DNA of 63,843 bases, counting the filler, from Dugesia japonica (taxonomy: Eukaryota): the NCBI GenBank assembly GCA_001938525.1. It is 7 parts of 7 records of this genome, joined end to end, with 100 filler letters (N's around TTAATTAATTAA, not from the genome) between each part and the next. Parts side by side here need not be neighbours in the genome. Positions count along the whole stretch, not along the records: positions 18,950 to 28,611 come from MQRL01645037.1; 6 more parts are not named here. One strand, given 5' to 3'. Both the position numbers and the translations under genes were made by a program. Of the stretch, positions 1-44,210 are shown in pieces; positions within the stretch are counted from its first letter, which is position 1, and each line of letters begins with the position of its first letter. The notes below the pieces were generated by a model, which was not told the origin of the DNA, ran no database searches, and saw nothing but the letters and a program-made list of their open reading frames with translations.

Positions 1-291
1 TTATTATTATTAGTACTCTGCTACTGTTTAAATAAATTTCCAAAATAATAGGCTCCCACTATATCTAAAGTGATATTCATTTTTTGTATTTGCCTACCTT
101 TTAGAATGGATCATATTTTATATCCTTCTAAAAACATTAACCAAAAGCTAGCTAAAAATATTCTTAAAAAATTTAAAGCTGAGACTAATTGGGAAATATT
201 ATAGGTAACATAACATACAAATTATAAATGATTGAGAATATGGATCAATAATAGAAACAAATTAAATCTCATAAAGAAACAATAAGTTTAC

Positions 292-6200: not shown

Positions 6201-9200
6201 CAATTATTATTTTCACTGATATTTACAGAGAGCACTTGAGCTTTATTAAGAAAATCATTAATTTCTACAAAATTTGGGTAGTTATTATTTAATATTTCAC
6301 TGAGTTGTTGATCTAAATTTTCAGTATTTTCTTTCATTATTTCTAAATCCTTCAATAAATCGATTTCTTCTTTGTNNNNNNNNNNNNNNNNNNNNNNNNN
6401 NNNNNNNNNNNNNNNNNNNNNNNNNNNNNNNNNNNNNNNNNNNNNNNNNNNNNNNNNNNNNNNNNNNNNNNNNNNNNNNNNNNNNNNNNNNNNNNNNNNN
6501 NNNNNNNNNNNNNNNNNNNNCTTTTCACAATTTAAAATTGATTTTGGATCTAAGTTAACGATATTATTTATCATATCTTTCATAACATTTAGATTATTAT
6601 CAGCGAAATCTAATGATTTCTCAATTGTTTCGAAATTTAAAATATCCTTCTTTTCATTGATTTTTGTATTTATTTCTACCAAATGATTGGATGTAGCATT
6701 TTTTATATTAATGAAATTAATTAAAAGATTTTGTAATTGTTCGTAGTCATCTTTTACTTTCTTTTGCTGAATTTCAATTTCCAATTTCATTTGATTTAAA
6801 TTTTCTTTATTCATAGCACTTTGATCAAATAAATCACAAATCTCTTGAACATTAATTGAGTTTCTACAAATTTCTAATTGGTTCTCAACATCCAAAACAT
6901 TACTCATCGTATTTTCGATTTCTTCTAATCGTTGATCCATATCTAAAATTGGATTGTTTTTTAAATAATCAATATCTTCAGTACATTTTTCGACATAAAA
7001 TCTCAAATTTGGATATTTATTCAACAAATCATTAATTGGTCCCAATGATGATTGCGTTGTGTTGATACAATTATTGATATTTTTCGATAGATTTGTTTGA
7101 ATGAGTGTAAATTTATCATTGAAAATAGGACTAACAAACGATAGATCATTGTTTTGAATTTTGAAAATTTTTTCTAAATCCATTAAAATTTTCTGCATTT
7201 CATCTTCAATATTATTTATTGAATTTTCAGGAGAAACTATTAAAATTTTTAATTGATCAATTGATCTATTAATATTATTAGAAATCAATTCCAATTCCGT
7301 ATTTAAATCCATTAATTTACTGTAATTTTCCATTGTAGATTTTATTTTATCTAAATCAACTAAATGTTTTTGTTGTTTTTCATCCAATTTATTTAAGAGT
7401 TTTCCATCATCATTTAAAAATTCTTCATTGATTTTATATTTAAAATTATCGATTTTATTTAATTGATTTTGGACATCATTCATCGCTTGTTTAATTAAAC
7501 TTGAAATGTCCTCGTTTTGAGATAGAGATTCATTCGTTAATGAAATTGTCGAATCACATGTTTCGATAACTCTATTAACCAACTCAATTTTTTCTTCATA
7601 ATTCTGATAATGATTTGATAATTTCAACTTCAAATTTTCAATAATATTATCTAATTCTGCAAAATTTTCATTGGGAAAATTAATTTTACAATTTTCTAAT
7701 TCAGATACTTGACAGTTCATTTGTTCTTCAAGTTGTTTTAATAATTCATAATTGTTTTCAATGACCTCTTTATCACTGTTTTCCCAACAAACCTTTTCAA
7801 ATTTATCGAGATATTCATTAAGACTACTTGTCAGTTCTATCCGTTGTTTTGTTAGTTGATCAAGTTTCTTTTTCTCTGTAGTAAATAAATGAATGTTTTC
7901 TTCTACAATAGTCTCGGTTATTTTCAATTCATTTTTCAAATTTTCAAATCTATCTTCAATGATTGATGACAAAGTCATTTGATTTCTTGAGAAATTTTCT
8001 TTCAAAATTTCCAACGATTCTTCTAATGGTAAAATCTGTTTTTGTAAATCGACAATATTTTTTCTTTGATTTAGTAATTGATTTTCATTATCTATCGGTT
8101 GATTTTTTATTTCCTTTTCAAAATTACTTTCCAAATTACTCAAATTTTCAACAAATACTTTACAATTTTCCATTAAATCGATTTTAGCAACACATAATTC
8201 TGAAATTTCCAAGCAATTTTTCAATGTTTTTTCAATTTGTTTGATTACTTTTTCATGAGATTGACAATTTGGAAATTTTTCCAGATGATTTTTGGATATT
8301 TCAGTATCGGATTTAATGGTTTCTAATTGTACTAAAGACGATTGTAGAAGAGAAATGATATCGTCAGCATATAATTGATTATCTGAATTTGTAATATCAT
8401 CAAATAATTGTAAACTAATACTATTGATAATTTGATTATTGCGCTCATTTTCCTGTTCGATTATTATTCCAAATTTCAAATCGATATTGTGATTAATATT
8501 TGTAATTTTGTCTTTGACAATATCGATTCCGGGATAAATATTAAAATTTTTCAAAAATTCTTTACCTTCTACAGGAATTATATCAATTAATTCAATTTCT
8601 TCAATTTTTTCTGTTGATTCATTAAGAATATTTTTTAATTCCAACATTTTTTCAATATTATCCATATTTATAAATTCAGTGGTATTTTCCAGATTTTCTA
8701 GTTTCGATAAATAAAAATTGATTTGATCCATTTTTACTTTATAATTGATTTCTACAGTTTGCATTATTGAATACATTTTGTCTAGATTTTCTATTGATAA
8801 ATTAGCATCTTTAAGTAATGGAACTTGGTCTTTTAATAGATAAATACAATTTTCTACAGAATGACAAAGTGGATAGATATCATTGGCAATTTCACAACAA
8901 AGTTCTTTCCATTTTTTAATGTCTTCAAGGGATTTAATATCAAATATACTCTGCTCTAATATATTCAGATTTCTTTGGGTATTTAATAAATTATCTGCAA
9001 TTTCTTTAACATCGGATTCATTAAAAATTTGATTATTGTCTTCATCAAAACTAGAATGAGCTACAACGATTTTCCTTAGGTTTTCATCTAATTTTTCCAA
9101 ATTATTATCAATTGAATTTTGGCATAGGTTTTTCTCTTCCAAAAGAACTGATTTAGCTTTATCAAGTGGAATTTTAATTATAGATTGTTTGAGTTCAGCA

Positions 9201-9870
9201 ATATCTGTTTCAATATTCAATACACAGTTTGATAGAATATTCTGAACAATTCCGATATTTAATTTCTTCACCGCTTCTTGTTTAAGTTCATCTAATTTTT
9301 CGAACTTTTCTTGACAAAAGTTTGACAGAAAATCTGTATAATCACGACTAAGTTGAGATTCATTTTGAGACTGAGTATTATAAATGAATTCTATTGATTT
9401 CTGAGCTTGAAGAAGTGTAGGATTCAGCATTTCATTTGATTTGATAATGTTCGGAACGATTGTTTCTTGTAGGTTTTCTACTGTCGCTTCTAAAATATCG
9501 ATTTCTTTTGTTATTGACAATCTTGTATTAATTAAAAATTTATTGTGTGTTAACACTTCAATTGATTTTGATTCAGCTAATTCACAGAGCTGTTGAATAT
9601 TCTCAATTGTAGGTAAAACCATATTGGCAATAGTTGGGTCTTTCAGTTCTAGTTCTGTGAATTTCGATTTAGTATTTTCTACCAGTTCTCTGTACATTTG
9701 TTGAATTTGTTCTACAATTCGTTCTTGTTGTCTTAGTTCCCCCAAAAAAATGTTTTCTTCTCCAATCGATATTAAATCAAATCGCTTAATTTGCGATTGA
9801 AAATCTCTAATCTTTTCCGTTTCATTTTCAGCTTCTTCTTTGAGTTTTATTGCCTGCGAAATGTTTGATC
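292..9870 (-). CDS. Internal exons of a giant coiled-coil / spectrin-repeat-like protein (nesprin/ANC-1/spectraplakin-like; family not resolved)
   Basis: ORFs 4628-9904 and 637-4587 join across the N gap 4646-4771 (…EKLSDEIEFKQQESIFDSNMEML…). Inferred exon 9870-646 (acceptor ttttag at 9871, donor CAG|gt at 645), 51-nt intron 595-645, exon 594-292 (SKRVDLESK…DKLM|gt). Over 3000 codons rich in E/K/N/I/L heptads with internal repeats. No CH or KASH domain visible. Confidence 0.8.
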
Positions 9871-10125
9871 CTAAAAATGTTAGCAACATTAAAAATGGAT
9901 TCAATAATATCTAAATTTTGACATTTTTATGTNATTATTTCTTGCAATACTTTGTTCTTTTGTATTAGCAAAAGCTTATAAAATTAATCTGAAATTCTAA
10001 TCGACAATTTTTTATTTACAATAATTTAAATGAGTATAACATTAGTATAAAATAAAATTTTATTCGAATTTTGGTGAAAAAACTAATAAAAATACCTTGT
10101 AAAATGAAAATATAAAATAATAATA

Positions 10126-10225
10126 NNNNNNNNNNNNNNNNNNNNNNNNNNNNNNNNNNNNNNNNNNNNTTAATTAATTAANNNNNNNNNNNNNNNNNNN
10201 NNNNNNNNNNNNNNNNNNNNNNNNN
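10126..10225. other. Artificial contig spacer N44-TTAATTAATTAA-N44
   Basis: Identical 100-nt structure with a six-frame stop linker; occurs six times in the window. Confidence 0.97.
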
Positions 10226-11179
10226 CGCTTGCAAATAGCCTTGCCAACTTATGTACCCCTTTTAAAAAAGGTTTGTTCTTAAATCGTAAGTATTAACACG
10301 GGATGTATCACATAAATTATCCACTGTTTCATATTCTAGCTGCACTTTGCTAATTTTCAAAAGAATCCTCTCACAGTAAATTAGCAATAATATTTTTGTA
10401 TTATTTGATAGCGTCATAGTATCTAATAATATTTTTCGAGTTAAACAAATAAGAATTATAAACTATTTTATTATAACTATATCTATAGTTAAAACTAAAT
10501 AAATAAATCGGGCTTTTTATGGTATGGATTACATGTATTAGTCATATAATAAGTCTTCTAAATATTTTATTGGAATTTTCAGTTACTTATACAATAATTC
10601 TCAATTCTTTGACAATTTTGGCAAACTGTTATTTTTCATTCTGTTACCTATTAAATTATGCTTATTATTAGTCATTATTATTCTAATATTAGTGTTATTA
10701 TTTATTGTGAGTTTTGTTACTGTTCGCTATAAAAGTATTAGTCAAAATTGTATTATTTTAATATTTTTTATAATTATAAATTATAATGATAATAATTATT
10801 ATTGTTATTAATATTCTTATATCCTTAAAGCAATCATTCAATTTCTTTTATGAGAGGTAGGTTGTTAAGCATTTTTTTCTTTTCATGTGTGACAGTCTAG
10901 CATCAATATGCGGTGACAGCAATGAAATTAGATAAATATCAACAGTTAAAATACAAAAGATTAAAGTTAACTAGTTTATTAAATATTATATTATAAAATG
11001 AATACAATGAATGTAAGATCGAACGAAAATAAAGAATTGTAGAAATTTAATTAAACATATTTATGCTAAAATTGTAATACTATAGTTGGGTGTACAAGAA
11101 CTTTGTTGTCGTTTTATTTAGAGTATAAAATTTAATGTGAATTCTATTATGTTATATGCTATATATTAATGATATAAAT

Positions 11180-11621
11180 CAAAGGTCTCAAACCCAAATG
11201 ATCTCTTGGGCCGCATTAAATAAAATTCGGTAGTCAACAGACCGCACTACTGCTGTGACTCACTATAACACTTCGTGCAACTCTATACAACATTACTAGT
11301 AATAGTATTATTAATAAAATCTATTATATTATATCGAATTTGTAAGGTAAATCTTACAAAGATAATTTATTCTTGAATAAATTGATCATTTTAATCATTT
11401 TCTATTGGCTTAAAATCTTCATAACCATTTCCTTATAGCATGCATATAATATATTAAAACATTAAGTAGGATCATTATTGCACACCATTGAAATATAATT
11501 TTTAAATACTATTTCAATTAGAAGCTATAACTATTTACAATCAAAGTAAAGCTGTAATTGTTGAAAAGTAATATTTGCTAGTCGCAATGAAGCATTGTGG
11601 GCCGCGTATTTGTCACCAATT
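11180..11621. mobile_element. Non-autonomous hAT (Charlie-like) MITE
   Basis: Left end CAAAGGTCTCAAAC…GGGCCGCA, right end GGGCCGCGTATTTGTCACC; 8-bp flanks ATATAAAT / AAATAAAT resemble a TSD. Confidence 0.5.
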
Positions 11622-11826
11622 AAATAAATATGCTATATATTATACTATATATTACAAAATGTGGTGACGACTTAAAAATATATTTGTTTGTACATATTTA
11701 TATATTGTATTGATCATGAACATTCGATTAAATTAAAACAAAATTTAAATTCATAATATTTTTAATAAATTTGAAAACATATTGGTTGTTATAAATTTTT
11801 TATTAATTAATATTATTATTAATATC

Positions 11827-11874
<48 letters not shown>

Positions 11875-12989
11875 TGTACAATTTTCTAAAAATATCAAAA
11901 TAGAAAATTTAGAAAACATTTTCCATTCCTATTCATTTTAAGCAACTAAAATAATAATAATTTATTATATTTTATTAGATTTTTTATAAAAAAAAATCAA
12001 CCGCAATAAGTACAAAATGATTTTTATTTTGTACAATGGATTAAAATTAACTTTTATTGATAATTTTAATTGAAAAAAATTTTTTTTTAAAAAAAAGTGA
12101 AATATAGAGAATTTCAAGTTAAACTTGAAATCGGGGCAATTCTCAGCAAAGTGTTAATTTCATTGCTAATTAAACAATTCAACGATGATCTCTGAATAGA
12201 AATGACNGATATAATTATGAAAACTATACAAATATCCTCAATACATACAAAATAAACAATCAATGCCAAAATGATGTTCAATTTATTTTTTTGGCATTAA
12301 GGATCGAAATTAATCAAGAGAAATTATTTTTTTTTATTTTCCATTTATCAAAATAATGCATTTCATTAGCGGATTTATTTTAAAAAATAACTAATTGAGT
12401 ATTTATTAATAGTTAATTTTTAAAATTAATACAAATAAAAAAAAACTGAGTCCTGTAATTTTAATTTTGAAATTTAATAATAAATAAAATATCATTAATC
12501 AAACAATTTACATTTCTCTATTCAAACAAAATATTCATTGTATTATCTAAAAGTAACAATAAATCAATTTGAATTTTCTTTGAATTATCGAGTATTTATT
12601 CAATAAATACGGTTTATGTATCTAAGATATTCTAATAATAGTGAGAACAGTTTGAGATTTTAACAATAGACATTCTTTTCATTTGGATGTTTAATGCGAT
12701 TTTTTAAATGTACACATAATGGTTAACATAAGCTAGAAAACAAAAAAAAACGATAAGATCTAAAATTCTGTAGAATAGTATTGTTATTTAATTTAATTGA
12801 CTGCAATTCATTCATATATGGAATACAATTATGTTTTCATATTTATAAGAGAAATAAACGTATCATTTTCATTTACATTCATGTTTATTTATTCTTTTAT
12901 TTAGTTTTCTCCAATCTGTATTATTTTTTCAAATGTCTAGTAACAATAGTTTTAATAATAATATAATTAACATTTGAATAATGATATCG

Positions 12990-13033
12990 AATTTTAATAA
13001 TACTAATAATACTAATAATACTAATATTAATAC

Positions 13034-13095
<62 letters not shown>

Positions 13096-13145
13096 NNNNN
13101 NNNNNNNNNNNNNNNNNNNNNNNNNNNNNNNNNNNNNNNNNNNNN

Positions 13146-13210
<65 letters not shown>
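12990..13210. repeat. (AAT)n microsatellite with gap; similar tracts at ~11810-11875, 37325-37420, 40690-40870, 50498-50564, 52572-52606
   Basis: Direct trinucleotide repeats. Confidence 0.95.
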
Positions 13211-13213
<3 letters not shown>

Positions 13214-13518
13214 GTTGAACCAATGTCAAAATTACGAATCTAAATAATTTTTAAAAAAAATTCTGTTTGATAAGTTTGAAATTTATTCGGGTATTGAGTC
13301 GTTATATGGATATAATTTAAATAGGTCTCATCGTTCGAAAAAAATATAAAATTTTAGCACTTTGTAAAATGGATTAATTAAAACTACTACTGAGTATATA
13401 AAAAAGAATTCAAAACAGTATAAGTAGATGAATTTGTTACATCCTAATATTAGGTTTCCTCTAGAGGAGGAAAGTATTGATATTTTGTTCTTGATCTTAT
13501 TCAAAATGTATTAAAAGC

Positions 13519-14760
13519 AGTAAGGGGATAGTAGCGCATGACGGCAATTTTTTTAAGCAGTTATCCGAGGGGGGCTAGGAAACACGTTACGCTTGAGTTG
13601 CGTTTTTTACTCGATAATTATTGATTATCGATTTTTGATCTGATTGATTATCGATTTTTGATCGGATCAGTTTTTTTGATCGGATCAGTTTTTTTTTGAG
13701 CGGATCAGATTTTTTTTTCATCGGATCAATTTTTTTAAAATCTTTATTTTTATCTTTTTTCATCTTTATTTTTCTTTTTTTTTACCATGTTGCAATTTTT
13801 AATAAAAAGTCTCATTACCGATGTAATTTTCCATTAAAAAAAACATATTGACATTGCAATTTTCCAAAATAAAACATTGGTGATGCAAATTTTTTATAAA
13901 AAACATTGGTGATACAATTTATCCATAAAAAACATTACTAGTGACAATATTTCTATGTTTTATTTTGGAAAATTGCAATGTCAATATGTTTTTTTTTAAT
14001 GGAAAATTACATCGGTAAAGAGACTTTTTATTAAAAATTGCAACACTAATGATACTTTTTATTAAAAATTACGACACTAATGAGATTTTGTATTAAAAAT
14101 TACAACACTAATGAGACTTTTTATTAAAAGTTACAACACTAATGAGACTTTTTATTTAAAAGTTGCAACACTAATGAGACTTTAATTAAAATTTGATCAG
14201 TAATATGCTTGTTTTATAAAAAATTACCTAGTTAAGATTTTTATGAAAAAAGTTCTATGTTTTTAAAATCTTGTAAAGAAAAGTTTTAATTTGAATATTA
14301 TATCATGAAAATATCAAAGTTTTTTGATAGATATATATTTATCGTGTTATTATCCTAAAGACGCCCCTCTTTGGTTATTTTTTTACCATATAGTTATATT
14401 TTATCATGAAAAATATTACAAAGACTCCCATTTTTGCCGTATTTTTGATATATTTTATCGAGAAAATAAACCATAGACTCTATTCTTTAAACTTTTTTCA
14501 TATATTTTATCATGATAATATCACAAAGACTTCCTTCTTTGAACTTTTTATTAGAATATTGTATCATAATAATATCACAAAGACTCCCATTTTTGCCGTA
14601 TTTTTGATATATTTTATCGAGAAAATAAACCAAAGACTACCCTCTTTAGTTATTTTTCATATATTTTATAATGAAAATATCACAAAGACTCCCCTCTTTG
14701 AACTTTTTTCATATATTTTATCACAAAAATTTCACAAAGACTCCCCTCTTTAAAGTTTTT
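13519..14760 (+). repeat. Putative terminal repeat region of a large DNA transposon: AGTA-N4-GATAGTAG terminus, then ~20-bp, 30-bp and ~53-bp tandem arrays
   Basis: Terminal motif at 13519; GATCGGATCAGTTTTTT units ~13620-13735; CAACACTAATGAGACTTTTTATTAAAAATT units ~14010-14190; ~53-bp CACAAAGACTCCC units ~14350-14760. Confidence 0.55.
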
Positions 14761-14889
14761 CATGTGTTTAAATAAAAGAGTTGAAAAAACTGTTCGTCAA
14801 GAGTTCAACAGCATAATCGTTTTATGGTAGTAGTAATATTGTTGAGCATAAAAATTNAAATAAAAGTAATTACAATGCAAATGTACAAC

Positions 14890-15320
14890 AATATAACCTA
14901 ATAAACGAATATTAGTCCCAAAAACTGTTTGGCATGGTGATAATTCTGAATCTTCCCCCGCCGTGTTACGGATTACTAACATTGCTAATGGAAGATTTTC
15001 TAACCAGCTACGTTCAGCATTAGTTCATTGAGTCCCTAGAGCATTCTTTAGAGACCTTTGGAGTCTTTCTATTTTCTCATTGCACTGGGGGTGGTATGGT
15101 GCTGTATGCCTATGTTCAATTCTAAAATAATTGCAGAAATCGTTAAATTTATCAGATATAAATTGTCTACCATTGTTGCTTACTATTATCTCTGGTACTT
15201 TGAAGCGAAATATCGATTCTTTAGTTAAGGCTTTTAGCACGAATTCGGATGAAATTTCATTCAGAGCCACTACTTCTGTTCATGAAGTATCAGGATCAAT
15301 CATTGTTAGTATAAAGAAAT
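14890..15320 (-). pseudogene. Ty3/gypsy integrase (rve core) fragment
   Basis: IIVSNNGRQFIS…HTAPYHPQCNEKIERLQRSLK…WLENLPLAMLVIRNT…SPCQTVFG matches the DNGxQF / YHPQxNGxxER pattern; internal stop. Confidence 0.85.
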
Positions 15321-15339
15321 AATTATTATTTAATATTTT

Positions 15340-19490: not shown

Positions 19491-20061
19491 ACAAACTAAA
19501 NNNNNNNNNNNNNNNNNNNNNNNNNNNNNNNNNNNNNNNNNNNNNNNNNNNNNNNNNNNTACATTTTAAAATTTTATCACTATTTGTATTATTTTGGGAG
19601 CGTTGATACTGAAACCATTGGTACAGTGTGCTTTGTTTCACTTAATGTAAATATCACATTTTCTTTGTAAATTTTCTCGAACACGGCCTTTTCATCATAA
19701 TTGACAAAACCAGCAAAAACTTTAAATTTTTTATTTACTGTTGTTGTTGGAACGTTAAATTCGTCCTCGTTTTTAATTTGGAATTGTTCATTATATGGAG
19801 TTAAACTAATCATAAAGTTTTAACAAATTATGTATTGTTTTACGAAATTATCAAAAACCGTGCTCACTGTTCACAATGTATGAATATAGAAATTTTCTAT
19901 AGAATTTTTGAGAAGTTGTATATTTTATTCATATGGAATGTTTACTGTATGCATTGTTCATTATACACATGCTTGACTGTATGTTTATATATTCAATTTC
20001 TACTAATATTTTATCTTAAATATTTTATCTGTGTAAGATTTTAATATCTAATTTATTTTAG

Positions 20062-20352
20062 TAAAACCTACTATAAGAAACATTACACACGTTATTTATC
20101 ATTACAGAAACGACAGTGTCTTTCTTCTATGCATTTTCAATCCATATTCAGTGCCTTATTTGAAAGGTAAGCTTGAATGGATTTATAATAATAAAACAAT
20201 TTCCTCAAAAAATGCTACATTCCATCATTACAATATTATACATTTCAATTACACTATTGAAAATCTTAATAAAACAAAATCCGGAATTTACAAATGTCAA
20301 TTAACAATGGGCAATTTCACAGCTTCCACTGCTTTTAATGTTATTTCTAAAA
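20062..20352 (+). CDS. Single immunoglobulin-domain exon (phase 1-1) of a cell-surface or secreted protein
   Basis: Acceptor tttag|, donor |gtatga; KPTIRNITH…VFLLC…LEWIYN…TIENLNKTKSGIYKCQ has the C…W…GxYxC Ig signature and about 7 N-glycosylation sequons. Confidence 0.75.
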
Positions 20353-21057
20353 GTATGAATATAATAGTTTAAATTTTTCAATAATTATTCTAGTTTTTTA
20401 ATTTCAAATGTTTTCAAAAGCATTTTTAAAATCATGTGTTTTATTATGTAAACATTTTTACACTGTTAATGATGTAAAACAAATTTATTCGTAACAATCA
20501 GATTAATATGATCAGAATAATTTATTAAAATTATTAATTGATAAAGACATTTGAGTTAATTTAGTTAAAATTATACAGTTATGAAAATCAATAATCTTTG
20601 AAATTTGTGTTCAATAGAATTATGCATAGATCGTGTATTAAATGGAATAATTGAAATACATCAACTTCACAATAACAAACACGCATCAAATAATCAATCA
20701 CTTAATTATATTTGTTGACACGAGTAGATCTTTTATTTAAAAGCTTTCCTTCCACAGCTGAAACTTCTGTTTAAATTCTATTTCTAGGTAGGCTTTCTTG
20801 CTCACGACCAAACATTTTGGAGGTTAAATTAAATTTATCTCGTTCCCACTCATTTTATAACATTTCAAATTTATTTGAGTTCACTTCAAGTGTGATTAAT
20901 TATTATATTCTCATAAGATTGTCATATGAAAGATTTATCCTTAAAATTCACTTTAAAAACTCAAAAAACAGACAACTTTTTCATAAAAATAAAAGAACGC
21001 CATTTAATAAAAATATTTATTTATGATTAGCTTATATATATATATATATATATAAAC

Positions 21058-23165
21058 CAAGGGGCTCAAAGGTTTATGTATGGGGGAACCATTTTTGAAA
21101 ATGTTAAAATACTGAAAAGCCACAAAATTTTCAACATAAACTTCAATTGAAATTTATTTTTATTGCTATAATTAATTAATAACTAAACACATTACTTTTT
21201 AAATTTTATACTATTAACAAATTTATTAAATACAAAGAAAACTTCAATAATTACATTTAAAAATTATTTGTAAAATCTGAAATATGTGTCCAAAAATTTA
21301 TCGTTTTTGCTTAACGAGAATTTTCAAATCGGGTTCATAATTTGTTAGATATGTCTTTAATAATTCAGTTAAATGGATATATGTTAGCTGTGAACGATGT
21401 TTATTTTTAACAAATTTTATAGTTGAATAAAATTATTTACAATTATAAGTGGTTCCGAATATAGACAATATTCGAACCACGAAATTAATTAAATTTGGAT
21501 ATTTGGATTCCGAAACAAGTTTCCAAAAGTCTATTATGGATTCTATTGATTTGTGCTCGATGATTATTGCTTCATCTGCCTGAATTTCTATCAACTCTAA
21601 TTTCAAGTTTGCAGAATTAGAAAGGATGACCTCAAGTATATTAAATCGTTCTTCAATAACATCCACTAGAAATGGATTTAAGAAAATTTTTATAGAAAAT
21701 TTCAAAGTTTTCAAATCTGAAAATCTCGACTTGAAACCTGAAAACAATTCTTTCAATTTATTTTGATATTCACTTAATTTTTCATTTGAAATTTTAAGTT
21801 GACTTTCTTTTAGACGAGGAAAATAATTTAAATCGTTAAAGATCAAATCTTTTTCATAAATTTGAATTTTCTTTTGAAAACTAAAAATTGTGTGGCACAG
21901 ATTGCTGACGAGTTTTTCTTTACCTTGTAATTCCAAATTCAGATTTTGTAAATGTTGCATGAAATCTGATAAAAAAATTATATCTAGTTTCCAATTATAA
22001 TTATTAAAATTACATAAAACATTATTTATCTGTCCTATAGTATATTTTTTGCTTTATCCGTTTTTTTGCTTCTTCTAGTAATTTTGTTTTATTTTGAAGA
22101 TAACAAGTAATTGGATTTAGTAGTTCTAGAAATTTATTTAATACATTATACGTGGATAACAACCTGACGATGTAATAAAAAAGCACACCATTTGAAATAT
22201 ATTTGTCTCAGGATTCAAAAAATTTTTAAACTGATGATGATTTTTTGCATTAGCTCGTATATAATTAATTGCATAGAAAACAGTATTCATGACATTTTAA
22301 TATTTGAAGTGCTTGGTAATGAGTTGTTCTCGATGCAATATGCAGTGTACTGAAAGATATTTGGGTATATTATGATATTTTATAAAGAGTCCTGTAAAGC
22401 CATTTATACTTCCTACCATAGCAGGAGTACCATAAGTTGCAATGCTTACCAATTTGTTAATAGGAATATCAAAATCGATTAACATTTTATCAAATGAATT
22501 TTTATTTTCGATACCGCGAGTTAATTCTTTAAGAGAAACTAAATCCAATAATTCTTCTTTTATAGTTATATCAGATAAAATAAAACGTATAAAAACCGCT
22601 AACTGTGGAGTACCATTAATATAAGTTGACTCATCTAGGGCCAAACTAAAGGCGTTATAGTTTTTAATATCAATTTTAAGTTTTTCAACTTTATCTAGAC
22701 ATATATCTGTAATACGTCTTTCTACAGTGGATCGAGATGTGGGAATTTTTGATATTTTTTTTATGTAATTTTGAATTCTCAGGATTTATAATTTTAACTA
22801 TATTTTTCAAATTTTTCTTAATAAATTCTCCTTCTATATATGGACGTTTGCCTCGTGTGATATTCCATGCCATGACATAACTTGCTTCCTTTAAATTGTC
22901 ATCTACATTGTTGAAAATGGAGAGAAAAAATTGTTGTTTCTCGAGTTCATTTTTAAATAGTTTAATTTTATCTTTTTTTAACTTTGTTTTTTCAGGGGAT
23001 GTGGAGTGGAAATCGGTGTGAATTGCATGGTAGTGCCTTCATAAATTTCAAAATTGAAAATGCATAATGGTTTTCCATTATTATTTATGAACAAAAAGTT
23101 TTGTTCCCACTTTTCATTAAAACTTCGTTTCTCTTCTTCATATTTTCTTTTTTAGCCTTATCCAT
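21058..23165 (-). mobile_element. Decayed hAT transposon, Charlie/SPIN (GTF2IRD2/EPM2AIP1-like) transposase
   Basis: RSFNEKWEQNFLF, LALDEST…QLAVFIR, HCILHREQL, HLQNLNLELQG, SIFGTTYNC motifs with stops and frameshifts; TIR-like CAAGGGGCTCAAA at 21058. Confidence 0.9.
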
Positions 23166-23231
23166 GATAACTCTAAAATATTTTTAAAATTTTTAGCAAT
23201 CATGAATAATAAAATACTAAATAATTAATGA

Positions 23232-24342
23232 TTATATGGAGAAGATGCCGTAAATTTCGTGAGTTTTATGCTAGATTATTATATGTATGGTAAGGCCTAT
23301 GGATGGCCAGAAAAAATCATGGTAATTCGATTGCCATTATATCTAAAAAGAACTGCTAGAGATGCGTACTGTCAGTTAGAGGCTTCGCAATTGGGTAGCT
23401 AGGCACATTGCAAAGATGCATTAGTCGAAAAATTAGTTAGTGAAGATGTGGGTAGAATTATGAGAAAGAAATTCTTTAATCGAGTACAAAATGAAGGAGA
23501 GTCGGTGAATGAATTCGCTTTTGAGTTGAGTACTTTAGCCGAGAAAGCCTTCAGATTGCGAGAAAACTAGGGAGATCATATTAAAAATATTTTTGCAAGA
23601 TCAATTTCTAATGGAAGCACAATCAAGTAATAGAACAGCGCTTAGTTTAGTAGATTATCAGGATTTTGATGATCTCGTTAAAAAAGCCAGACGAATTGAA
23701 GTAAATTCTGCGGCGACAACAAAAGCTCCTACAGTAAATTACACTGAGACGGCAAAATTTCAGAGACCTGAACCAGAAAGTCCAAATTTTAGAAAAGGGT
23801 CAAATTTCAAACCAAGAACATTTAATCCACCGTCGCCAAGGAATAATAGACCATCTCCAAAATATGAGAGAAATAGCAATTTTCAACAAAACGCGTTAAA
23901 AAGGACAGTGAAAGGTTTTAGGTGTCAACTTAAAGGACATACTGCAAATCAATGTCTTACAAAATTGGGTAATGGAGGAAATCGTGAAAGCAGGAGAACA
24001 ATACAATGTAATAATTGTGGACGAATTGGACATTTATATAGAGATTGTTACGCTCCAAAGTCGCGTTGTCCATCAACCTCTCCATCTCCGCAAAGAAATA
24101 CATTAAATTCCAAAGGCCAACAACAATGTTATTCATGTCAGAAATATGGTCATATTGCAAGATCATGTCCAAATAATGTTGATCGATTCCAAAAACCAAT
24201 TTTAAAGAAATCAGTCAAAATTGATAACAATCCTAGAGTTAATTCCACCTTTTCCCCATATAATCATGAAAGAATAAAATTTGAGGCAGAATTAGATGAA
24301 ATGAGACGAAGGACTCAGATAGCGATAACGAAAACTCAATGA
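23232..24342 (+). pseudogene. gag: Gag: capsid plus three CCHC zinc knuckles
   Basis: KAYGWPEK…LPLYLKRTARDAY…RVQNEGESVNEFAFELSTLAEKAF (major-homology-like region); knuckles (C>G)FRCQLKGHTANQC, CNNCGRIGHLYRDC, CYSCQKYGHIARSC. Confidence 0.9.
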
Positions 24343-24672
24343 TATTTTTAGAAAATGATCCACAAATTGGATGTGAAATACCAAATCTTCTTGGTCAAAT
24401 TTCACCTATGATAGACGATGTCGTAGTAAATAAAAGCCAAATTTTATACTCACATTTTTCAGCTAATATCGAAAATTGCGAATGAGATATGGAGGAGATT
24501 TTGGTAATTTTGCAATAGTTAATAAAACTGAATTTGCCTTTAGAAAAATTAGAAAATGTTATGAAGAAATGTATTTATAATTGTAATAATGGAGCTAAAC
24601 ACGTTTTGGAATTGAAACTCATCATGACAAAGATTGGACAAGAAATGTGCAAAAATTTCGTGGTTAGAAGAT

Positions 24673-24886
24673 GTATATGTAGTGTTTATTGATAACAATG
24701 GAGATAAACTTACAAAACCTATTAGTGCTTATAGTACAGTCAGAGACTTATTTCAGATGATTGGTGAATCCAAGGAATTGAAAATTGTGAAAATGAAATT
24801 TGCTAATNAAACTTTGGAGGATATAGATGCTTATATTGTGGATCTAGAAATGATCCCCGGAATGGAAAATGAAGTTACGATTTTAC
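24673..24886 (+). pseudogene. Ubiquitin-like (beta-grasp) domain within the retroelement polyprotein
   Basis: VYVVFIDNNGDKLTKPISAYSTVRDLFQMI…MKFANxTLEDIDAYIVDLEM…EVTIL parallels ubiquitin IFVKTLTGKTITLEV…TIENVK…LIFAGKQLEDGRTLSDYNI…TLHL; same frame as the zinc-knuckle ORF. Confidence 0.55.
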
Positions 24887-25627
24887 AATTTCACGAGATA
24901 ATAAAGACGGTACCTCAAGCAACAGAGTTGATTTTATTACGTAAATTACAATGCGAATTAGAGAGTAAAAATGATGATAAAATCCAAATGGTACTGCATG
25001 ACATATTGAGCATGCCAAAAGGAGGCAGTATGAAACGTGATTTTATCTAATTATTGGTACCGTATTTGTATACAATGCATAAAAATAAAATTAAACTAGA
25101 AATGTAAAAATTTGGAAAAGAGTTTAGAGAGGAAAAAGCCAATTTTCCTCCTTTTATACTAAAATAGACATGGATCTATGTGGAATTAAATATTGTAAAC
25201 TAAACAAGTTTAACGAAAATTCAGCGAACAAGAGATAATTGTGGACTTTCGCGAATTGTTGATGAGATGATGAAAATCTCAGAGAACCAATGTAACGTTA
25301 GGGATCGCATTGAGTGCAAAGAACTTTTAATGGGATTACAAAGTGAGATATACCCATGATAGAGAATAAAAAGTATTAAAAGAATTTATACTAGAGATAT
25401 GGCGGACAACTTATTCGAATTTGTCCAATTATAATGATTGAGATAAATAAAACTCCTGACGAAGACAAGGTCGAAATATCGATTTGTTATCCAATATCAA
25501 TAATTAAAACCTAAATTTTGATCNNNNNNNNNNNNNNNNNNNNNNNNNNNNNNNNNNNNNNNNNNNNNNNNNNNNNNNNNNNNNNNNNNNNNNNNNNNNN
25601 NNNNNNNNNNNNNNNNNNNNNNNNNNT

Positions 25628-25888
25628 GGATTGGCATTTCTAATTCAGCAAATGGGAATTTATATTTCAGTTGATTATCAAAATATGGGCGATATGATTG
25701 AAGAAGTATTGAAAATAATCCTAAAATATATGTATCCGTTTGTCCAAAAACCAGGAGGCTGGGAATTTCTGGGAAACGTGAGAAAAATCGAACGAAAAAG
25801 TTCTATGTTTTCAACGGGATTCAGAGGTGTCTCACCGTGGTTAATAATAATGATTCTTACGATTGGGTTGGTAAATTACACAACTTCG
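25628..25888 (+). pseudogene. Bcl-2-like C-terminal half (BH2) plus hydrophobic anchor
   Basis: GLAFLIQQMG…IILKYMYPFVQKPGGWEFL resembles the BH2 motif (WIxxxGGWxxF) with Bcl-2-like spacing from the post-BH1 AF, followed by a basic linker and PWLIIMILTIGLV; BH1 would fall in the N gap 25524-25626. Confidence 0.55.
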
Positions 25889-28008
25889 TTAACAGCATAT
25901 GACTGTTCACAAACTGAATTAGGAAAAGTTTATTCTTTAGTTGATGTAGCAGAATGTCCAGAAGCCCACCAATTGAAACTGAAAACTGAGGAAAATGTAC
26001 CTTATTATATCTATCAAGAGTTAGGATTTTGTCGGACAACAGTTAGAGAATGCATAGTTAAACGAACAACTTTTATCTTTTATTGTGAAAAATGGAGTCA
26101 TTCATCATTGATATAGTTTAAATCAATGCCTAGGCCAGTGGACATAACGCAAGAAAATTGCGAATCGGCTTTTTAGACTAAAGAGATTAAAATTAATGCA
26201 GAAATTAAACTATCTGCTAAAAAGAATTTTATTATCCGATAATCATTTACAGTAAAAAGGAAGCTTATGAGTAATGGAGATTGTACTGGAGAACCTTATA
26301 AAATTGGGAATAATATTGTTGATAAAGTAATGGTAGTTGAAGAGTACTCGACTGAGTTACGAGAATTTGAAGGGACTTTTAAAGATGTAACAGGAAAATT
26401 ACAAACTCATGCGTTTTGTGATATATATAGCACTAGCTGTCATACAGGAAAATCTATGCTTGTGTATAAAGTTAAAGTAAAAGAATGTAATTTAGCTTAA
26501 TTGAGACAGACAGAGTTTATTGAAATTACTGGAGAGCAATTTAAAATTAATCTAGACGTCTCTAATTTCCCCAAGGATAAGGGAAACAGCAGTAGACAAA
26601 CATTACCTGTTGAAAAAAGTAAAACACAAACTGTGCTGGTGACATTAGTAAAAGAAGAAGTTATGAGATTTATTAGAAAGGATCCAATTGTGAAATGTGG
26701 TAAAACATTGTATGAAACGAATTATAAAAGGGTGTATGTGTCAAAAACAAAAATGGAAGATGCAAAAGAGAATATACATGTTTCGGAAGTAAAGCTAACA
26801 CAATATTTTAATAATAAGATAGACTTTCTTTTTCATTTTCATACTAAAACAATATCAAACATATATAGTGAAATAATACTAAATGACTGTAAATCAAATA
26901 GAGAAATTTTACGGAATCGGATGGCAATGGTAATGAATAATCCAAATGTGGTTGCACCTTTGCTTATAGTTGAAAATTGAGTATTTGCTCGAGTAATGAG
27001 GAAAGTATTATATAGCTACAAATGTAAAGAGGTGTCAGTCAAACTAATGAAATATGATGAGTGTACTAACGGATTGCCAGTCAACGTAGGTGGAATGTTG
27101 AGATTCATGGAACCTATAACAAGAGTCTTATTAGATAAAGATACAAAACCAAAAAATTGTATTGCAATCGATTATAAGCACCTTTGTATAAATTAACTCC
27201 AGATACGTGAATATCACTGCCGGATCGAAAGCAAGTTAAAAAACCGGAAAAACTGGAAATGACAAAATTAGACTATTTACTAAATTTTACAGCATTGGGA
27301 AAATTGTCATCTTCAGGAATCTATTCAACTGAAAACATTGAGAACGCGAGACGGAATTTGCTATTCCCATCAAAAAGAGAAAGAATTATAACGGAATTTG
27401 TAGACAGGATACTACCTAGTAGAGCGGAAAGTGTAAATTACGATTATTTATTCTCTCCAGATCATTACAAAAAAACTACTTTAAATACTATGAAAAATAT
27501 ATGAGGACATTTTTTGTATTTTGGACAAGTAACGTCCAGCTTTATTGGAGGGTATTTGTTATGGAAATTCTCAAGAGTAGTGATTTCTTACGTATTATCT
27601 ACGTACAGATTATATACCATGTTTGGGCTTTCATTGAAATTAATTGTGGGATGTATACCATTCCTTGCAAAATTTTTAATAATTACTCACCAATTTAATG
27701 AAATGAGGAGGATAAAGGAGCAAGTTTCGAGTAGCAAACAAAATAAAAGGAAAAAGAAACACATAAATCGGAATAAGCATGTCAAATTCCAAGATAAAAC
27801 TGACGATAGTAGCAGTACCGAGAATGATAACACTAACAGTGCAAGTACTAGTGGTACATTGAACGTGGATAATGTTGTAAATAGCACTCAATCGTTATTT
27901 TCAGTTGAGGATTGGAACACTTATAAAATAAAACGTATTCCAGAGATGATTAAAGATCCAAATTACTATCAATCTCAGCCACCATGTTATCCAATGGGGT
28001 CATTATAA
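25889..28008 (+). pseudogene. env: Chuvirus/Jingchuvirales-like envelope fusion glycoprotein
   Basis: AYDC…SLVDVAEC…VREC…YC.KWSHSS, GDCTG, KCG…ETNY, YFNNKIDF, YKCKEVSV…CTNGLPV…FMEPITRVL, SGIYS…RRNLLFP, then hydrophobic segments FGQVTSSFIGGYLLW…MFGLSLKLIVG; several stops and one frameshift near 27155. Confidence 0.8.
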
Positions 28009-28107
28009 GAAATGAAATTTATTGAAATTAATGAGTTTGGTAATGATAAAAAGAAAATAGATATTGAAACAGAAAGATGAAATATTTTGGGATTACCGAC
28101 TAATTAT

Positions 28108-28290
28108 GTGTTGATGAAAATCGCAAATTTCGGCAGACAACCAAAAATCACAGTGCAATTAAATGGAATTTCTATAAAAGCAATACTAGATTCAGGTTGT
28201 AGTGTAACTATTATTTCAGAGGAAATTCTAGATCCAGGAGATCTAGTTAATATGACAACTACAGAAGAAATAATTCGATCAATGTCAAAA
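28108..28290 (+). pseudogene. Retropepsin-type aspartic protease, N-terminal part
   Basis: PKITVQLNGISIKAILDSGCSVTIISE (DSG at 28189-28197), same frame as the Env C-terminus; homology is lost after ~28290. Confidence 0.85.
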
Positions 28291-28611
28291 ATGCTAAAGA
28301 TTTGGTTGTTGTTGGACAAAAACTTGGTCTTTATATTGTCTAAAAGACTTATGAGGTTGGATGCATGGTTTGTCTTAGAAGTGTGGTAGCGCCAAGAAAC
28401 AGTGGTATGAGTTATCGTGTGGTGTTTTTTGGGGGTTGTAGGTTTGTATGTGGTTGGGTTAGGGTTATAGGTATGTGATTTTCATTGTATGTGTGAGTAG
28501 ATGGATAGTGGCAGTCCTCACCACGCACACATTTAGTACCCCCCCCCGCCGTGACGTAACGTAATGAAATTTAATCCTAATGTATTTAGTTGGGAATTTA
28601 AAAATTGCATC

Positions 28612-28711
28612 NNNNNNNNNNNNNNNNNNNNNNNNNNNNNNNNNNNNNNNNNNNNTTAATTAATTAANNNNNNNNNNNNNNNNNNNNNNNNNNNNNNNNN
28701 NNNNNNNNNNN
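28612..28711. other. Artificial contig spacer
   Basis: N44-TTAATTAATTAA-N44. Confidence 0.97.
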
Positions 28712-29573
28712 CCGTGTGCCACTATCTACATACTGTTTATATATTAATTTTATTGATTTTCCTTTCTGTTGAATTCTCATCATTTTTATTTTTTGAATAA
28801 GTTTTTACTTAGTGTTGTTTTTTGTCCAAACAGATTACTCCCAGGGTATTTCAGATTCGGTCCTTGAATCAATATTTCATTTTTCATTGGTTTTGGCTTT
28901 TTCTTGGTTTGGATTGCATTCAATTCACCGTAGATATCCAACAAATAAAAATTATAAAAATCTTAAAAATTTTACATTCACATTTGGTGATAATAATAAT
29001 ATAGAAGAAGAAATACTACCATATTATTATCATAAGTTTTGAATAAGTTGAGAATAAGCATGGTTAGAAAGAAAATAAATAAATACATACATATGTTATC
29101 ATAATGTCAACTAGTCTGACAATGAAAGTTCTAGAAAAATATTTCTGCATAATATTGCTGGATTGCATCCTGGTTGATTAGTGGATTGTCTTGATTGAGC
29201 AACTTTTAATTTGAGTAGGTCTGATAAATGGAGTCAAGGAATCGTATTTCCGCGTCTTTTAATTCCTGCTTTTTCTCGTAATTGGTGTTTGATTTAACTT
29301 CTTTATTTTCTTTTTCTCCCTCCATTGTTCAATCGACTTGTTAAAACCGTGTTTTCGTTGAGGTTTTGGTTGGATATTTACATCTAATCCCTAGCTTGCT
29401 GAACTGCATATTTAGCTCGGTTTGCAGCTAATCAATATCATCTTTTGCATTATCTAACTTGGCTTAAAAAAAATTTAAAATACATTTAATAATTTATTTT
29501 TAGTAAATTTTAAAAAAATAAATGATTGATAAATTTGATAATCTATTATCAAGAATAAATTTTGAAATTTATG

Positions 29574-30835
29574 TCAAACAAAATCATTGAATAATAAGTA
29601 TTTCTCAAAGAATTGATCTTCCATTAATTGATCAATTGTTGCTCTCTTTTTTGGTTCTTTTTTCACACAACTATCGATAAAATTGAATAAATATTCTGGT
29701 TGGTTTATTCTAGTTTTATCATATTCAATTGTCTGTGATTCCTTGATCTTTTGAACTATTTCAGATTCTTTTAATCGAGGAAATAATTGACCGTCTTTAA
29801 TTAAATAATAAAATAAATAATAATCAATATAATAATCACGTGTGATAATTTCTATCATAATAACACCAAGTGACCACACATCAACACTCGCATCATAAGG
29901 TTTACTTTCCAATATTTCTGGTGCAACATATGTCAAGATACCATCTCTATGTTTACATTTATCAACGTCTTCATCATCAAGATGATTCAAATATTCAGTC
30001 ATATTGAAACTTAATAATTTGACATCACGATTGCCATCAATCCAAATATCGATTGCTAATATAATCATTATACTTCATTTACATAATTAATAATATTACG
30101 ATTCAAGTCTTTCATAATTATATTATGATTGTGCAAATGTTTCAGCCCTGCTAGGATCTGATATGCCCATTTAGATATTTCATATGTTGATGTTTCATAG
30201 TTTACAAGAAAGGTTTTCATTGGTTTCTTCATTAAAAAATAGTTATTAATAAATATCATAATTTATACGAACAAATGCAACCTTTGTCGCATTCTCCATT
30301 TCTATATAGACACGGTTTTTACCAATATAAATATCAAACAGTTTCATAAATCTTGAATGAGATTTGGTTATTTTAAACATTTGTAAATCGTCTATCAAAA
30401 TCCTTGATAAATCGTTATTATGTGCATTTTCCATGTATTTCATGTCGTATCCTTTCAACAAGGCTGGCCTAATTTTGTTTGTCCGAGTAAACAGATTAAT
30501 AGGATCAAAATCACTCAGTATTTGAATATCTTTATCTTCATCTAAACTATATTTTATAATTAATTTTTAATTTATAATAAATATTAATTAATTAAATGAT
30601 TAATAAATACACACCTTTTGAAATAACAAAATTCCACCAATGATTTACTATCAATATTATATTCATAAATGAATTTATCATTTTGCAGTACTGTTTTATT
30701 TAAAAATATAACAAAATCATTGGTTGCCATTTTGTGTTGTATTTTCTGAATAGATTTGTTGATAATGTTTGATACTTTTTCGGATTTTGAGAATTCAATT
30801 GATATTGTTTCTTTATCAGTGAAAATTGATTTCAT
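29574..30835 (-). CDS. Ubiquitin-like domain + Ser/Thr pseudokinase, multi-exon; 5' end uncertain
   Basis: Introns 30542-30612 (donor uncertain), 30227-30281, 30056-30099 and 29795-29839 restore one frame: ALLK…EMENAT…YQILAGLKHLHNHNIIMKDLNPIDIWID…VKLLSFN…GILTYVAPEIL…DVWSLGV…PKKRAT. First exon TISIEF…VLQNDKFIYEYNIDSKSLVEF is Ubl-like. Confidence 0.75.
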
Positions 30836-33849: not shown

Positions 33850-34816
33850 GAGTATTTACTTCTCGGATATAAATTTTTTTCTATGTTCCCAAAAATTATT
33901 TCATCACTTTCATCATTTTCCTCTTCATAAATGGCATGGACTTGTTTGATACGACTCCTATCTTTTGTTTTATGTCCGCTTTTAAAATTGTGTCTTTCTT
34001 TTAATCTTGGCTTGTTCATGTTCAAATAACATTTTTCAGCTCAGTGACTTGGGCTTTTACATTTATTGCATATAATTTCTGTGCACATCCTTCTGATGTG
34101 ACCAATCTTACCACACCCAAAACATTTTAGAGGCTCCTTGTCTGGACAGTTTCTACTTAAATGCCCTTTCATGTGGCAAGTCCAGCATTCTACTTGAGAA
34201 TTTTTCGGACACTCTTTTTGTCTGCTCATAACTCTGGCATGCACAACACTTAGGTTCTGTTTTTTCCTGTTCTTCTTTTGTTGATGGTATCTTCTCTACA
34301 TGCAACTACCACGTTACACTTTACTTCATTAATAGGTTCTCTTCTTTCTATTTTTGAGTTTCATTTTATATATTTTACTTTATCCAATTTTCACATGATT
34401 ATCTTTTTTTCTGCTTTTAATTATTAAAATTTTTGAAAAGATCTTTTCTCTTGTCAGATTTAAAAATTACTAAATATTTATCGACTAAATCTTCCACTAT
34501 TTTAAAAACACCACAAGTCCTTCATTAGCATGTCAATAGTTTACAAGATTGTGGAAATATTTTATTACGTCACTATTGCTCTCGAAAGCTAATTGCAATC
34601 TTCCTTGATATCTAGCAACTTTTTAAAATATTTTTGCATATGCCTCTATTAGTTCTTTATCAAGCATACATGTTGTTAAGCTCTCCGGATCTTTTTTATT
34701 AACGATGCCCTTTGTCTCGAAGTATATTTCACACCGTTTCTAGATCATCGCCTCTGCAAAATATCTTTGACAACACTCTCTCTATGATGGAATCGGAGTT
34801 TACCACTTTCACCATG
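33850..34816 (-). pseudogene. gag: Ty3/gypsy gag remnant with three zinc knuckles
   Basis: CWTCHMKGHLSRNC, CFGCGKIGHIRRMC, CNKCKSPSH*; upstream region decayed. Confidence 0.75.
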
Positions 34817-42875: not shown

Positions 42876-43981
42876 TGGCGTCAGAAGCTGAATTGGTTAT
42901 TGTAAAAAACTAAAGCATTAAATCGTAACTAAAGAAGAAGCGCCTATCACTGTTTTATCTAGATGAATACCGATAGGACTTGGGGATAAAGTTGATAATT
43001 TAGTTGAAGATTTATTAAAAAAGAAATAATCAGGAAAAGACCGTGGAATGTACCTTTAGTGTGTATCACTAAGGCAATGGTGGCATATTATTATGTGCAG
43101 ATTACCGGCAGTTAAACTTAATCACAACCAGACCAATATATCCAATTCCAGAAACTNATCAGCTTTTTGATGCACTGGGTGGAGCAAAGATATTTAGCGT
43201 TTTAGACTTATTTAATGGATAATATAATGTCGAAGAAATAAGGTGGCTAAAAAACAGCATTCTTTACTAGAAGAGGGCAGTATGAATTTAATAGAATGCC
43301 ATTTGGCCTGAGTTCAGCCCCAGCAATATTTCAACGACTTATGCATCTGATATTGCAAAATGAAAATTGGGAACAATGTTTTATTTATCTGGACGATGTT
43401 TTGATATTTGGAAACTTGTATGAACAACATCTCAGTCGATTGGAAGTAGTTTTAGTTATAATAGAAGAATTGGGAGTTGAATTAAAACCTACAAATGTAA
43501 TGTTATGCTAAAGGAAGTTTCGTATCTGGGACATAGAATTACGATAGAAGGTATAAAAAATAATCTAATAAAGATAGAAAAGTTCAAAATTGGTCAAAAC
43601 CAGGGTGTTACTCAAATCTACATTCTTTTAAAGCTTTCTGTAAATATTATAGAAAATTTATAAAAGATTTCGCGTACGTCGTTCAACCTTTAGAAACTAT
43701 ACTGAAACAAGACAAACAAAGAATAAATGAGAAATAAAGCAATAAACCAATAATTTTGGATGCTGAAGGAAAAAAAGCATTTTAAAAACATACAGGAACT
43801 TTTAACAACAGCCACAGTTATATCTTATCCTCTTAAAGAAGGTATGTTCATATTAGACACAGATGCAAGTCACAGTCATATTAGATGAATCTTAAGCTAA
43901 TTTCAAAATGGAGATGAAAAAGTCATCGCATATACGTCGAAGAAGCTGACAAATTCAGAATTGAAATATTGTGTTACTCGC
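42876..43981 (+). mobile_element. pol: Ty3/gypsy remnant: PBS-like site, reverse transcriptase and RNase H
   Basis: CA|TGGCGTCAGAAG PBS-like; CADYRQLN, MPFGLSSAPAIFQR, YLDD, FILDTDAS, VIAYTSKKL; many stops and frameshifts. Confidence 0.9.
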
Positions 43982-43989
43982 GGTATCAT

Positions 43990-44210
43990 TGCTTTACAAC
44001 TACGATCACTGAATATCACTCCACTGGAATTTGTTCTTGGGTTATGTAAAGAGTATTTAAGCAAGATAAAACATTTGGAACATTAAAAGACTTGAATTAC
44101 ATACACCATTGCAACAGTCTCTCCGGAAATGATTCAAAACACTTGGGCTGATATTGAACACAGCCTTGACATGCTATACACAACGATTAGCTCCCATGTA
44201 AAAATTTAAT
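43990..44210 (+). pseudogene. Tc1/mariner-like transposase C-terminal remnant
   Basis: LRSLNITPLEF.LGYVKS resembles PRSPDLTPLDFFLWGYVK. Confidence 0.55.

Follow-up and report, generated by a model that had tools for sequence, protein, structure and literature searches.

Is the glycoprotein gene at this locus a viral gene recently caught by a retrotransposon, or an old part of the element that surrounds it? The window (the whole stretch of DNA that was analysed, 63,843 nucleotides) had been read from its sequence as carrying a chuvirus-like fusion glycoprotein captured by a gypsy-type element. We consider it very probable (about 0.9) that what lies here is one dead copy, truncated at both ends, of a high-copy retrotransposon (likely a planarian gypsy of Burro type), in which a broken env gene of predicted class III lies between a BCL2-like domain and a protease. 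Judging by its sequence relatives, env appears to be a member of an old retroelement-borne lineage related to the chuvirus glycoprotein (G) and not a recent capture. The link between chuvirus G and retroelement envs is old and has already been described, and the gene arrangement is already in print.

Structure and decay of the env gene

Translation and a motif scan located ten env motifs, in the expected order, within positions 25,895 to 27,369 (Table 1). The coding stretch (about 25,850 to about 27,730, ca. 625 codons) is not a single open reading frame, as it is spread over two frames with eight stops (26,114, 26,174, 26,240, 26,498, 26,978, 27,175, 27,208, and 27,502) and a frame change at about 27,145 to 27,160, where the tblastn high-scoring segment pair (HSP) switches. 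The env gene is dead. Two hydrophobic stretches, 25,817 to 25,890 and 27,505 to 27,700, each contain one 19-residue window above a Kyte-Doolittle value of 1.5, and the segment that precedes the mature N terminus is predicted to be an internal signal sequence of env.

When translated with X in place of the stops, the two parts of env match the Pfam family Monjiviricetes_fusion (PF24664) with 149 bits (E = 1.5e-43) and 105 bits (E = 3.5e-30), the cut-off being 27 bits. Together they reach position 638 of the 653 in the profile, and the match can be regarded as far beyond chance. Neither part contains a furin-type R-x-R/K-R site; according to the available part of Chary and Hayashi (PMC13524379), gB-type envs do not always keep one.

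Table 1. Features of the element copy and of the repeats inserted in it or abutting it (positions along the window).
Feature	Position	Strand	Evidence or remark
gag capsid region, 5' end cut, with stops and a frame change	23237..23700	+	Retrotrans_gag, tblastn
gag nucleocapsid	23914..24168	+	zf-CCHC, E 5.9e-10, 2 stretches
Accessory region, broken	24300..25453	+	Depth continuous with gag and env
Short repeat of very high copy number, inserted in the element and extending into the assembly gap	25454..25626	.	Depth, loose ends
BCL2-like domain, C-terminal part	25631..25765	+	HMM of relatives, iE 0.002
Hydrophobic segment before the mature env N terminus	25817..25894	+	Hydropathy 1.73; same segment precedes env in relatives
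Predicted class III fusion glycoprotein ectodomain (PF24664)	25895..27504	+	8 stops, one frame change
env motifs AYDC; SLVDVAEC; KWSHSS; GDCTG; YFNNKIDF	25,895; 25,934; 26,090; 26,276; 26,804	+	First frame
env motifs C.EVSV; GLPV; FMEPITR	27,023; 27,071; 27,104	+	Same frame as AYDC to YFNNKIDF
env motifs SGIYS; LLFP	27,313; 27,358	+	Second frame
env membrane-proximal and transmembrane segment, then charged tail in the same frame	27505..27730	+	Hydropathy 1.74 at 27,610
Aspartic protease start, DSG at 28,189	28120..28291	+	Pfam RVP, 21.3 bits (cut-off 20.7)
High-copy repeat abutting the cut 3' end, outside the element coding region	28292..28611	.	Depth, 51-nt match

Predicted fold of Env

A search of the PDB with the single env sequence gave nothing at an E value of 10, so that a family profile was needed. 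With a profile of 110 env relatives, all 38 PDB sequences listed were herpesvirus gB, the best at an E value of 2.8e-5. The AlphaFold model of env residues 1 to 452 (mean pLDDT 90.7, pTM 0.73) contains long strands and a 48-residue central helix. Among solved structures, Foldseek found herpesvirus gB as the best match (E = 6e-12, TM-score ca. 0.43), and among predicted viral structures the best were glycoproteins of chuvirus-like and related negative-strand viruses (E = 1e-29), with TM-scores of up to 0.76 at 15 to 21% identity. Since the model matches both chuvirus-like G and herpesvirus gB, env is predicted to encode a class III (gB/chuvirus-G-like) fusion protein. The sequence-only reading had listed the ordered motifs over some 600 codons, proposed homology to chuvirus G, and named the class III fold beforehand as a check. 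The motifs are all in place, though within a decayed frame, and the profile and structure searches bear out both the homology and the predicted fold.

The element around env

From 5' to 3', the element contains gag with CCHC knuckles, an accessory region, the BCL2-like domain, env, and the protease. In the gag capsid region, Retrotrans_gag is matched at an E value of 0.003 (18.2 bits, below the cut-off of 24.1), and tblastn places residues 33 to 133 of a relative, P0013, on 23,253 to 23,552 (E = 3e-13). Two CCHC zinc knuckles can be read in the translation (24,007 to 24,048 and 24,127 to 24,168), preceded by a degenerate third (23,914 to 23,955). The accessory region gave no Pfam match at an E value of 0.1, nothing beyond a chance match in the PDB (E = 0.18), and no relatives among the longer proteins searched. 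Inside it, a putative ubiquitin-like stretch may lie at about 24,670 to 24,885: an HMM built from the helical and ubiquitin-like segments of four relatives weakly matches 24,730 to 24,882 (iE 0.36), its sole match in the six frames of the window, and at the corresponding place P0013 matches Pfam ubiquitin with an E value of 0.031. No MATH domain was detected in the element with Pfam or with the HMM of the relatives.

An assembly gap (N's at 25,524 to 25,626, some 200 bases ahead of env) separates gag from env, and just the C-terminal part of the BCL2-like domain is visible after it, with the helices before BH2 and a terminal GGW. A profile of this stretch from four relatives and the window matches Bcl-xL in the PDB from BH1 to BH2 (E = 0.004). 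Pfam Bcl-2 is matched in the relatives P0006 (E = 0.001) and P0013 (E = 0.055), both below the cut-off, and the ESM Atlas gave no usable match for the BCL2-like stretch of P0013. One open frame, from 25,508 to 26,116, holds the BCL2-like tail, the hydrophobic segment, and the start of env. At the other end, the protease continues the frame of the env tail, with two intervening stops (28,006 and 28,078), and a single HSP with the relative P0018 covers 27,148 to 28,230, from env into the protease. We found no Rfam match in 23,000 to 29,000 and no tRNA gene in the window.

With cuts at about 23,237 and about 28,291, the copy contains no LTR, reverse transcriptase (RT), or integrase; as these are absent from the element in the window, its gypsy class is taken from its relatives. 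A gypsy-type carrier, as proposed from the sequence, agrees with the position of env in a retroelement that has gag and protease and whose relatives resemble gypsy elements. That earlier reading had missed the position of env before pol, in frame behind a BCL2-like domain.

Sequencing depth and other copies

Summed contig depth is uniformly high over 23,030 to 28,365 in all three contig runs (ca. 1,500 to 15,000, a sum that is not a copy number). It is 60 to 290 over the hAT remnant beside the element, and many single contigs have depths of 6 to 31. The depth marks one high-copy family from gag through protease. Across the assembly gap, the link between gag and env is given by the matching depth and by one contig joint, as a contig of run X2 joins 25,452 to 25,631 (the letters between are not known). 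No single piece listed from the contigs of the three runs covers the whole element stretch. Loose ends occur at 23,236, together with a jump in depth, and at 28,291. Contigs with depths of 277 to 580 align up to 28,291 and then continue with other sequence, which indicates that other copies extend beyond the cut.

Two repeats interrupt or border the copy. The one at 25,454 to 25,626 has a summed depth of about 300,000, compared with 1,500 to 15,000 around it, and many loose ends at 25,454 and 25,523. The one at the 3' end has a summed depth of 55,000 to 103,000 (last bin) and is linked to 60,173 to 60,223 by the 51-nt match. Among the RNA reads aligned from a quarter of one run (n = 395), 2 were at least 99% alike and 362 were less than 95% alike, on both strands, which suggests that they come mostly from other copies.

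Relatives and phylogeny of env

A search of 1.84 billion representative proteins with env gave 763 matches at an E value of 0.001. Within the best 150, long polyproteins stand at the top, with 35 to 40% identity to env. Pfam scans of the best 16 found protease and/or RT behind env in 11, a knuckle or Bcl-2 before env in 2, and env alone in 3. Relatives among those scanned show the order protease-RT-RNase H-integrase, with RVT_1, RT_RNaseH, Integrase_H2C2, and rve; five of them (P0008, P0010, P0016, P0017, and P0154) carry env-protease-RT-RNase H-integrase in a single chain, and P0013 shows the order gag-ubiquitin-Bcl-2-env, with weak Pfam matches. Names were checked for 30 env matches, of which 2 were chuvirus glycoproteins, from Tacheng tick virus 4 (P0059, 24% identity) and Guangdong red-banded snake chuvirus-like virus (P0074, 21%). 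A word-based homologue search with env returned 2 proteins only, and no related loci were found in metagenome contigs searched with the window env and with P0003 or in viral contigs searched with P0013.

Some of these polyproteins are unusual in themselves. P0154 (4,844 aa) has seven aspartic-protease stretches, ankyrin and C2H2 matches, and a long tail after the integrase, and P0005, also an env-pol polyprotein, has three aspartic-protease stretches. P0010 (HBK71150.1) is annotated as a hypothetical protein from a metagenome bin assigned to the Flavobacteriaceae; as it is an env-protease-RT-RNase H-integrase polyprotein, it is likely animal DNA in a bacterial bin.

For a first tree, 170 proteins found with the env profile were reduced to 112 rows by removing 41 that were too short and 17 near-duplicates. 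The window falls in a clade of 17 rows (SH-like support 89) that includes all 13 rows flagged in advance as polyproteins, the named chuviruses and the insect sequences form a separate clade of 58 rows (99), and a third clade holds 35 rows (100). A 42-row IQ-TREE analysis (LG+G4, without a mixture model) gave the three clades SH-aLRT values of 99, 99, and 100 and placed the window next to P0013 (91), and a clade uniting the window with the chuvirus-like rows is rejected by an AU test (p = 0.0004); both the selection of 42 rows and the group tested were settled on after the first tree had been seen. Two rows in the trees are named chuviruses, and none is labelled Anakin. The trees are unrooted and so give no direction of transfer. 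The polyprotein clade is deep, with members down to 27 to 31% identity to the env query among the matches listed. With these caveats, the trees exclude a recent chuvirus origin of env.

Origin of env

How the gene came to lie here can be weighed against three other readings. One is that a gypsy element of the host lineage recently and independently acquired its G from a chuvirus (Jingchuvirales), which would fit the PF24664 match, the chuvirus-like G as best viral fold matches, and a gene order unlike that of canonical errantiviruses. We regard it as very unlikely, as env is only 21 to 24% identical to the two named chuvirus G and 35 to 40% identical to retroelement polyproteins, is not nested among chuvirus-like G in the trees or by the AU test, and belongs to a deep clade of a published element type. 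An ancient capture from an unsampled chuvirus relative is possible and compatible with env being an inherited part of a Burro-type element. The capture from a chuvirus that was proposed at the outset is not supported, as env lies outside the clade that holds both named chuvirus G and the arrangement has been published for Burro. Its claimed independence from the arthropod BEL/Pao cases survives in part: the trees, which hold no Anakin row, are consistent with a separate lineage, but a new capture is unsupported. The suggested tree with chuvirus G and retrotransposon homologues, once built, puts env in the retroelement-polyprotein clade and not among chuvirus G.

The N gap just before env and the repeat pile around it could also suggest a stand-alone endogenous chuvirus G fragment among unrelated debris, mis-scaffolded across the gap. 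This is highly improbable in view of the single open frame that joins the BCL2-like tail, the signal, and env after the gap, the single P0018 HSP over env and protease, the level depth across the element block, and the same gag-ubiquitin-like-BCL2-env order in P0013, sister to the window in the 42-row tree. Domestication, in which env would serve the host in cell fusion or receptor blocking, has been put forward for solo mosquito genes of the chuvirus-like G type (PMC7642597, available part). Here its probability is negligible, given the eight stops and frame change and RNA reads that come mostly from other copies, and for the window copy the broken frame refutes it. We therefore retain the reading of a dead copy of a Burro-type element with its own env.

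Comparison with known elements

(i) Burro and GYPSM1. In the available part of Arkhipova and Yushenova (2019, PMC6431247), the gag of the planarian Burro/GYPSM1 elements is described as carrying two or three CCHC knuckles and as being followed by a Ubi2/SUMO-like motif, BCL2, and then an in-frame env before the protease. The Burro env has multiple matches among the fusion glycoproteins of mononegaviruses from arthropods and fish, and decaying Burro fragments are reported in Dugesia japonica (same source). A citing paper (PMC13465017, available part) attributes to Burro1 an anti-apoptotic role in stem cells. The window copy shares with Burro the gag motif (weak Retrotrans_gag, strong P0013 match), two intact and one degenerate CCHC knuckle, a BCL2-like domain directly before env, an env in frame to the protease (decay aside), mononegavirus-G homology, and high copy number. 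At the place of the Ubi2/SUMO-like motif it gives the iE of 0.36 with the HMM of the relatives and no Pfam or PDB match. It differs in being a dead fragment of 5 kb that lacks LTRs, RT, RNase H, and integrase, and the BIR, ankyrin, and dUTPase parts of Burro would fall in the portion missing from the copy. Another difference is that PMC6431247, in its available part, likened the Burro env to the gypsy Env (F-type relatives), whereas the fold predicted here is class III.

(ii) Errantiviruses with gB-type env. The available part of Chary and Hayashi (PMC13524379, 2026) describes gypsy elements with a gB-type env and GAG-ENV-POL order in Nematoda, Bryozoa, and Platyhelminthes, and argues for their ancient origin. 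It also notes that a BEL/Pao-type glycoprotein that resembles Chuviridae envelopes adjoins gypsy pol as well. Supplement 1, as available, gives nine flatworm elements, among which Smed_errantivirus_1 and _2 have configuration C1a. Our element shares the GAG-ENV-POL order and gB-type env of the Platyhelminthes HSV/gB-type errantiviruses. In a hand count by eye over domains I-II, env and Smed_errantivirus_2 agree at 108 of the first 184 ungapped positions (ca. 59%), near the 63.7% between Smed_errantivirus_1 and _2. The element is a distinct family or their counterpart in another species. Smed_errantivirus_1 and _2 are intact there, with 45 and 215 copies, whereas the window copy is broken. Intact ORFs and LTRs are the inclusion rule in the available part of PMC13524379, a property of the copy and not of the family, and one that this copy lacks. 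Given its stops, its frame change, and its two cut ends, we file it as a dead copy of the family and not as an intact errantivirus.

(iii) Anakin and the Chuviridae. Anakin elements are BEL/Pao elements with a chuvirus-like G in mosquitoes (PMC7642597, available part). They share with ours an env of the same broad PF24664 family on an LTR retrotransposon and differ in belonging to the Pao superfamily and in their insect hosts. Membership in Anakin/Pao was rejected, as no Pao-specific Pfam family was found in the gag or protease of the window or in the 18 relatives scanned. The families sought were those taken to be Pao-specific. Chuviridae G (P0059 and P0074) has the Pfam family, the cysteine frame, and the predicted class III fold in common with env; it differs in its low identity, its separate clade, and its form, as it is a stand-alone protein of about 660 residues outside any gag-env-pol polyprotein. 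In its available part, an arthropod-centred screen (Dezordi 2023, PMC10084718) reports no clear gypsy capture, which may be a reason why the present case looked new.

Proposed function in intact relatives

In intact relatives, the parts form one polyprotein, as shown for env-protease-RT-RNase H-integrase. The hydrophobic segment before env would serve as an internal signal sequence, through which the ectodomain enters the ER lumen, where signal peptidase may free its N terminus. The C-terminal anchor of Env would then return the chain to the cytosol, and the protease there could cut out Pol. Trimers of Env on budding particles may fuse these with cells nearby; the BCL2-like domain would protect the element-producing cell from death. 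The window copy can perform none of these Env, BCL2, or Pol steps.

A bolder proposal, which we think unlikely, is that the env-polyprotein clade is an old class III fusogen lineage, sister and possible donor to chuvirus G, with RT packaged through a tether to Env and not through Gag. Here Pol would be synthesised as an extension of the cytosolic Env tail, both in a single chain, and RT would thus be tethered to Env; if true, this is a packaging route unlike that of retroviruses. Under the favored reading, that of a dead Burro-type copy, the fragment alone matters little, as the anatomy of its family is published. What the analysis adds is a check of the fold (class III, chuvirus-G-like) together with a small tree in which Burro-type envs form their own clade beside chuvirus G. 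Both bear on whether class III fusogens passed from negative-strand RNA viruses to retrotransposons or the other way, which the copy alone cannot answer.

Other features of the window

The GC content of the window is 17 to 34% per kb. It contains animal genes (talin, Ig domain), and env is closest to Schmidtea elements. Talin-like exons (I_LWEQ and Talin_IBS2B; 50,746 to 53,460, plus strand) identify the host as an animal. As suggested earlier, the host is probably not an arthropod, and a flatworm is probable. We also found a protein kinase domain (29,574 to 30,566, minus strand) and an immunoglobulin-domain exon (20,052 to 20,372, plus strand). On the minus strand, 262 to 9,910 hold about 3,100 open codons, divided among two or three exon-like blocks of great length with a high content of E, K, L, I, and N; this frame has no Pfam match and is probably a giant coiled-coil or spectrin-like host protein.

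The inserted repeat at 25,454 to 25,523 has a second copy at 59,405 to 59,472 on the minus strand. It starts with what we took to be a hammerhead-ribozyme-like core (CTGANGA, a short stem, GAAA), presumably as in Penelope-linked repeats. This assignment was not supported by the tests, with no Rfam match, a fold z of -1.15, and the pattern occurring 5 times against 3.4 expected. Two minus-strand stretches, 47,364 to 47,810 and 61,585 to 61,926, share a 77-nt repeat and, without a Pfam match, presumably resemble Penelope-type RT and GIY-YIG remnants. A broken hAT transposase (Dimer_Tnp_hAT, DUF4371) lies at 21,433 to 23,038 on the minus strand, immediately ahead of the truncated 5' end of the element. 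Other LTR-retrotransposon debris occurs at 42,892 to 43,996 (plus strand) and at 14,860 to 15,327, 34,083 to 34,208, and 54,873 to 55,298 (minus strand), and comprises RT-RNase H, integrase core, and gag knuckles, plus a gag-like stretch judged by eye.
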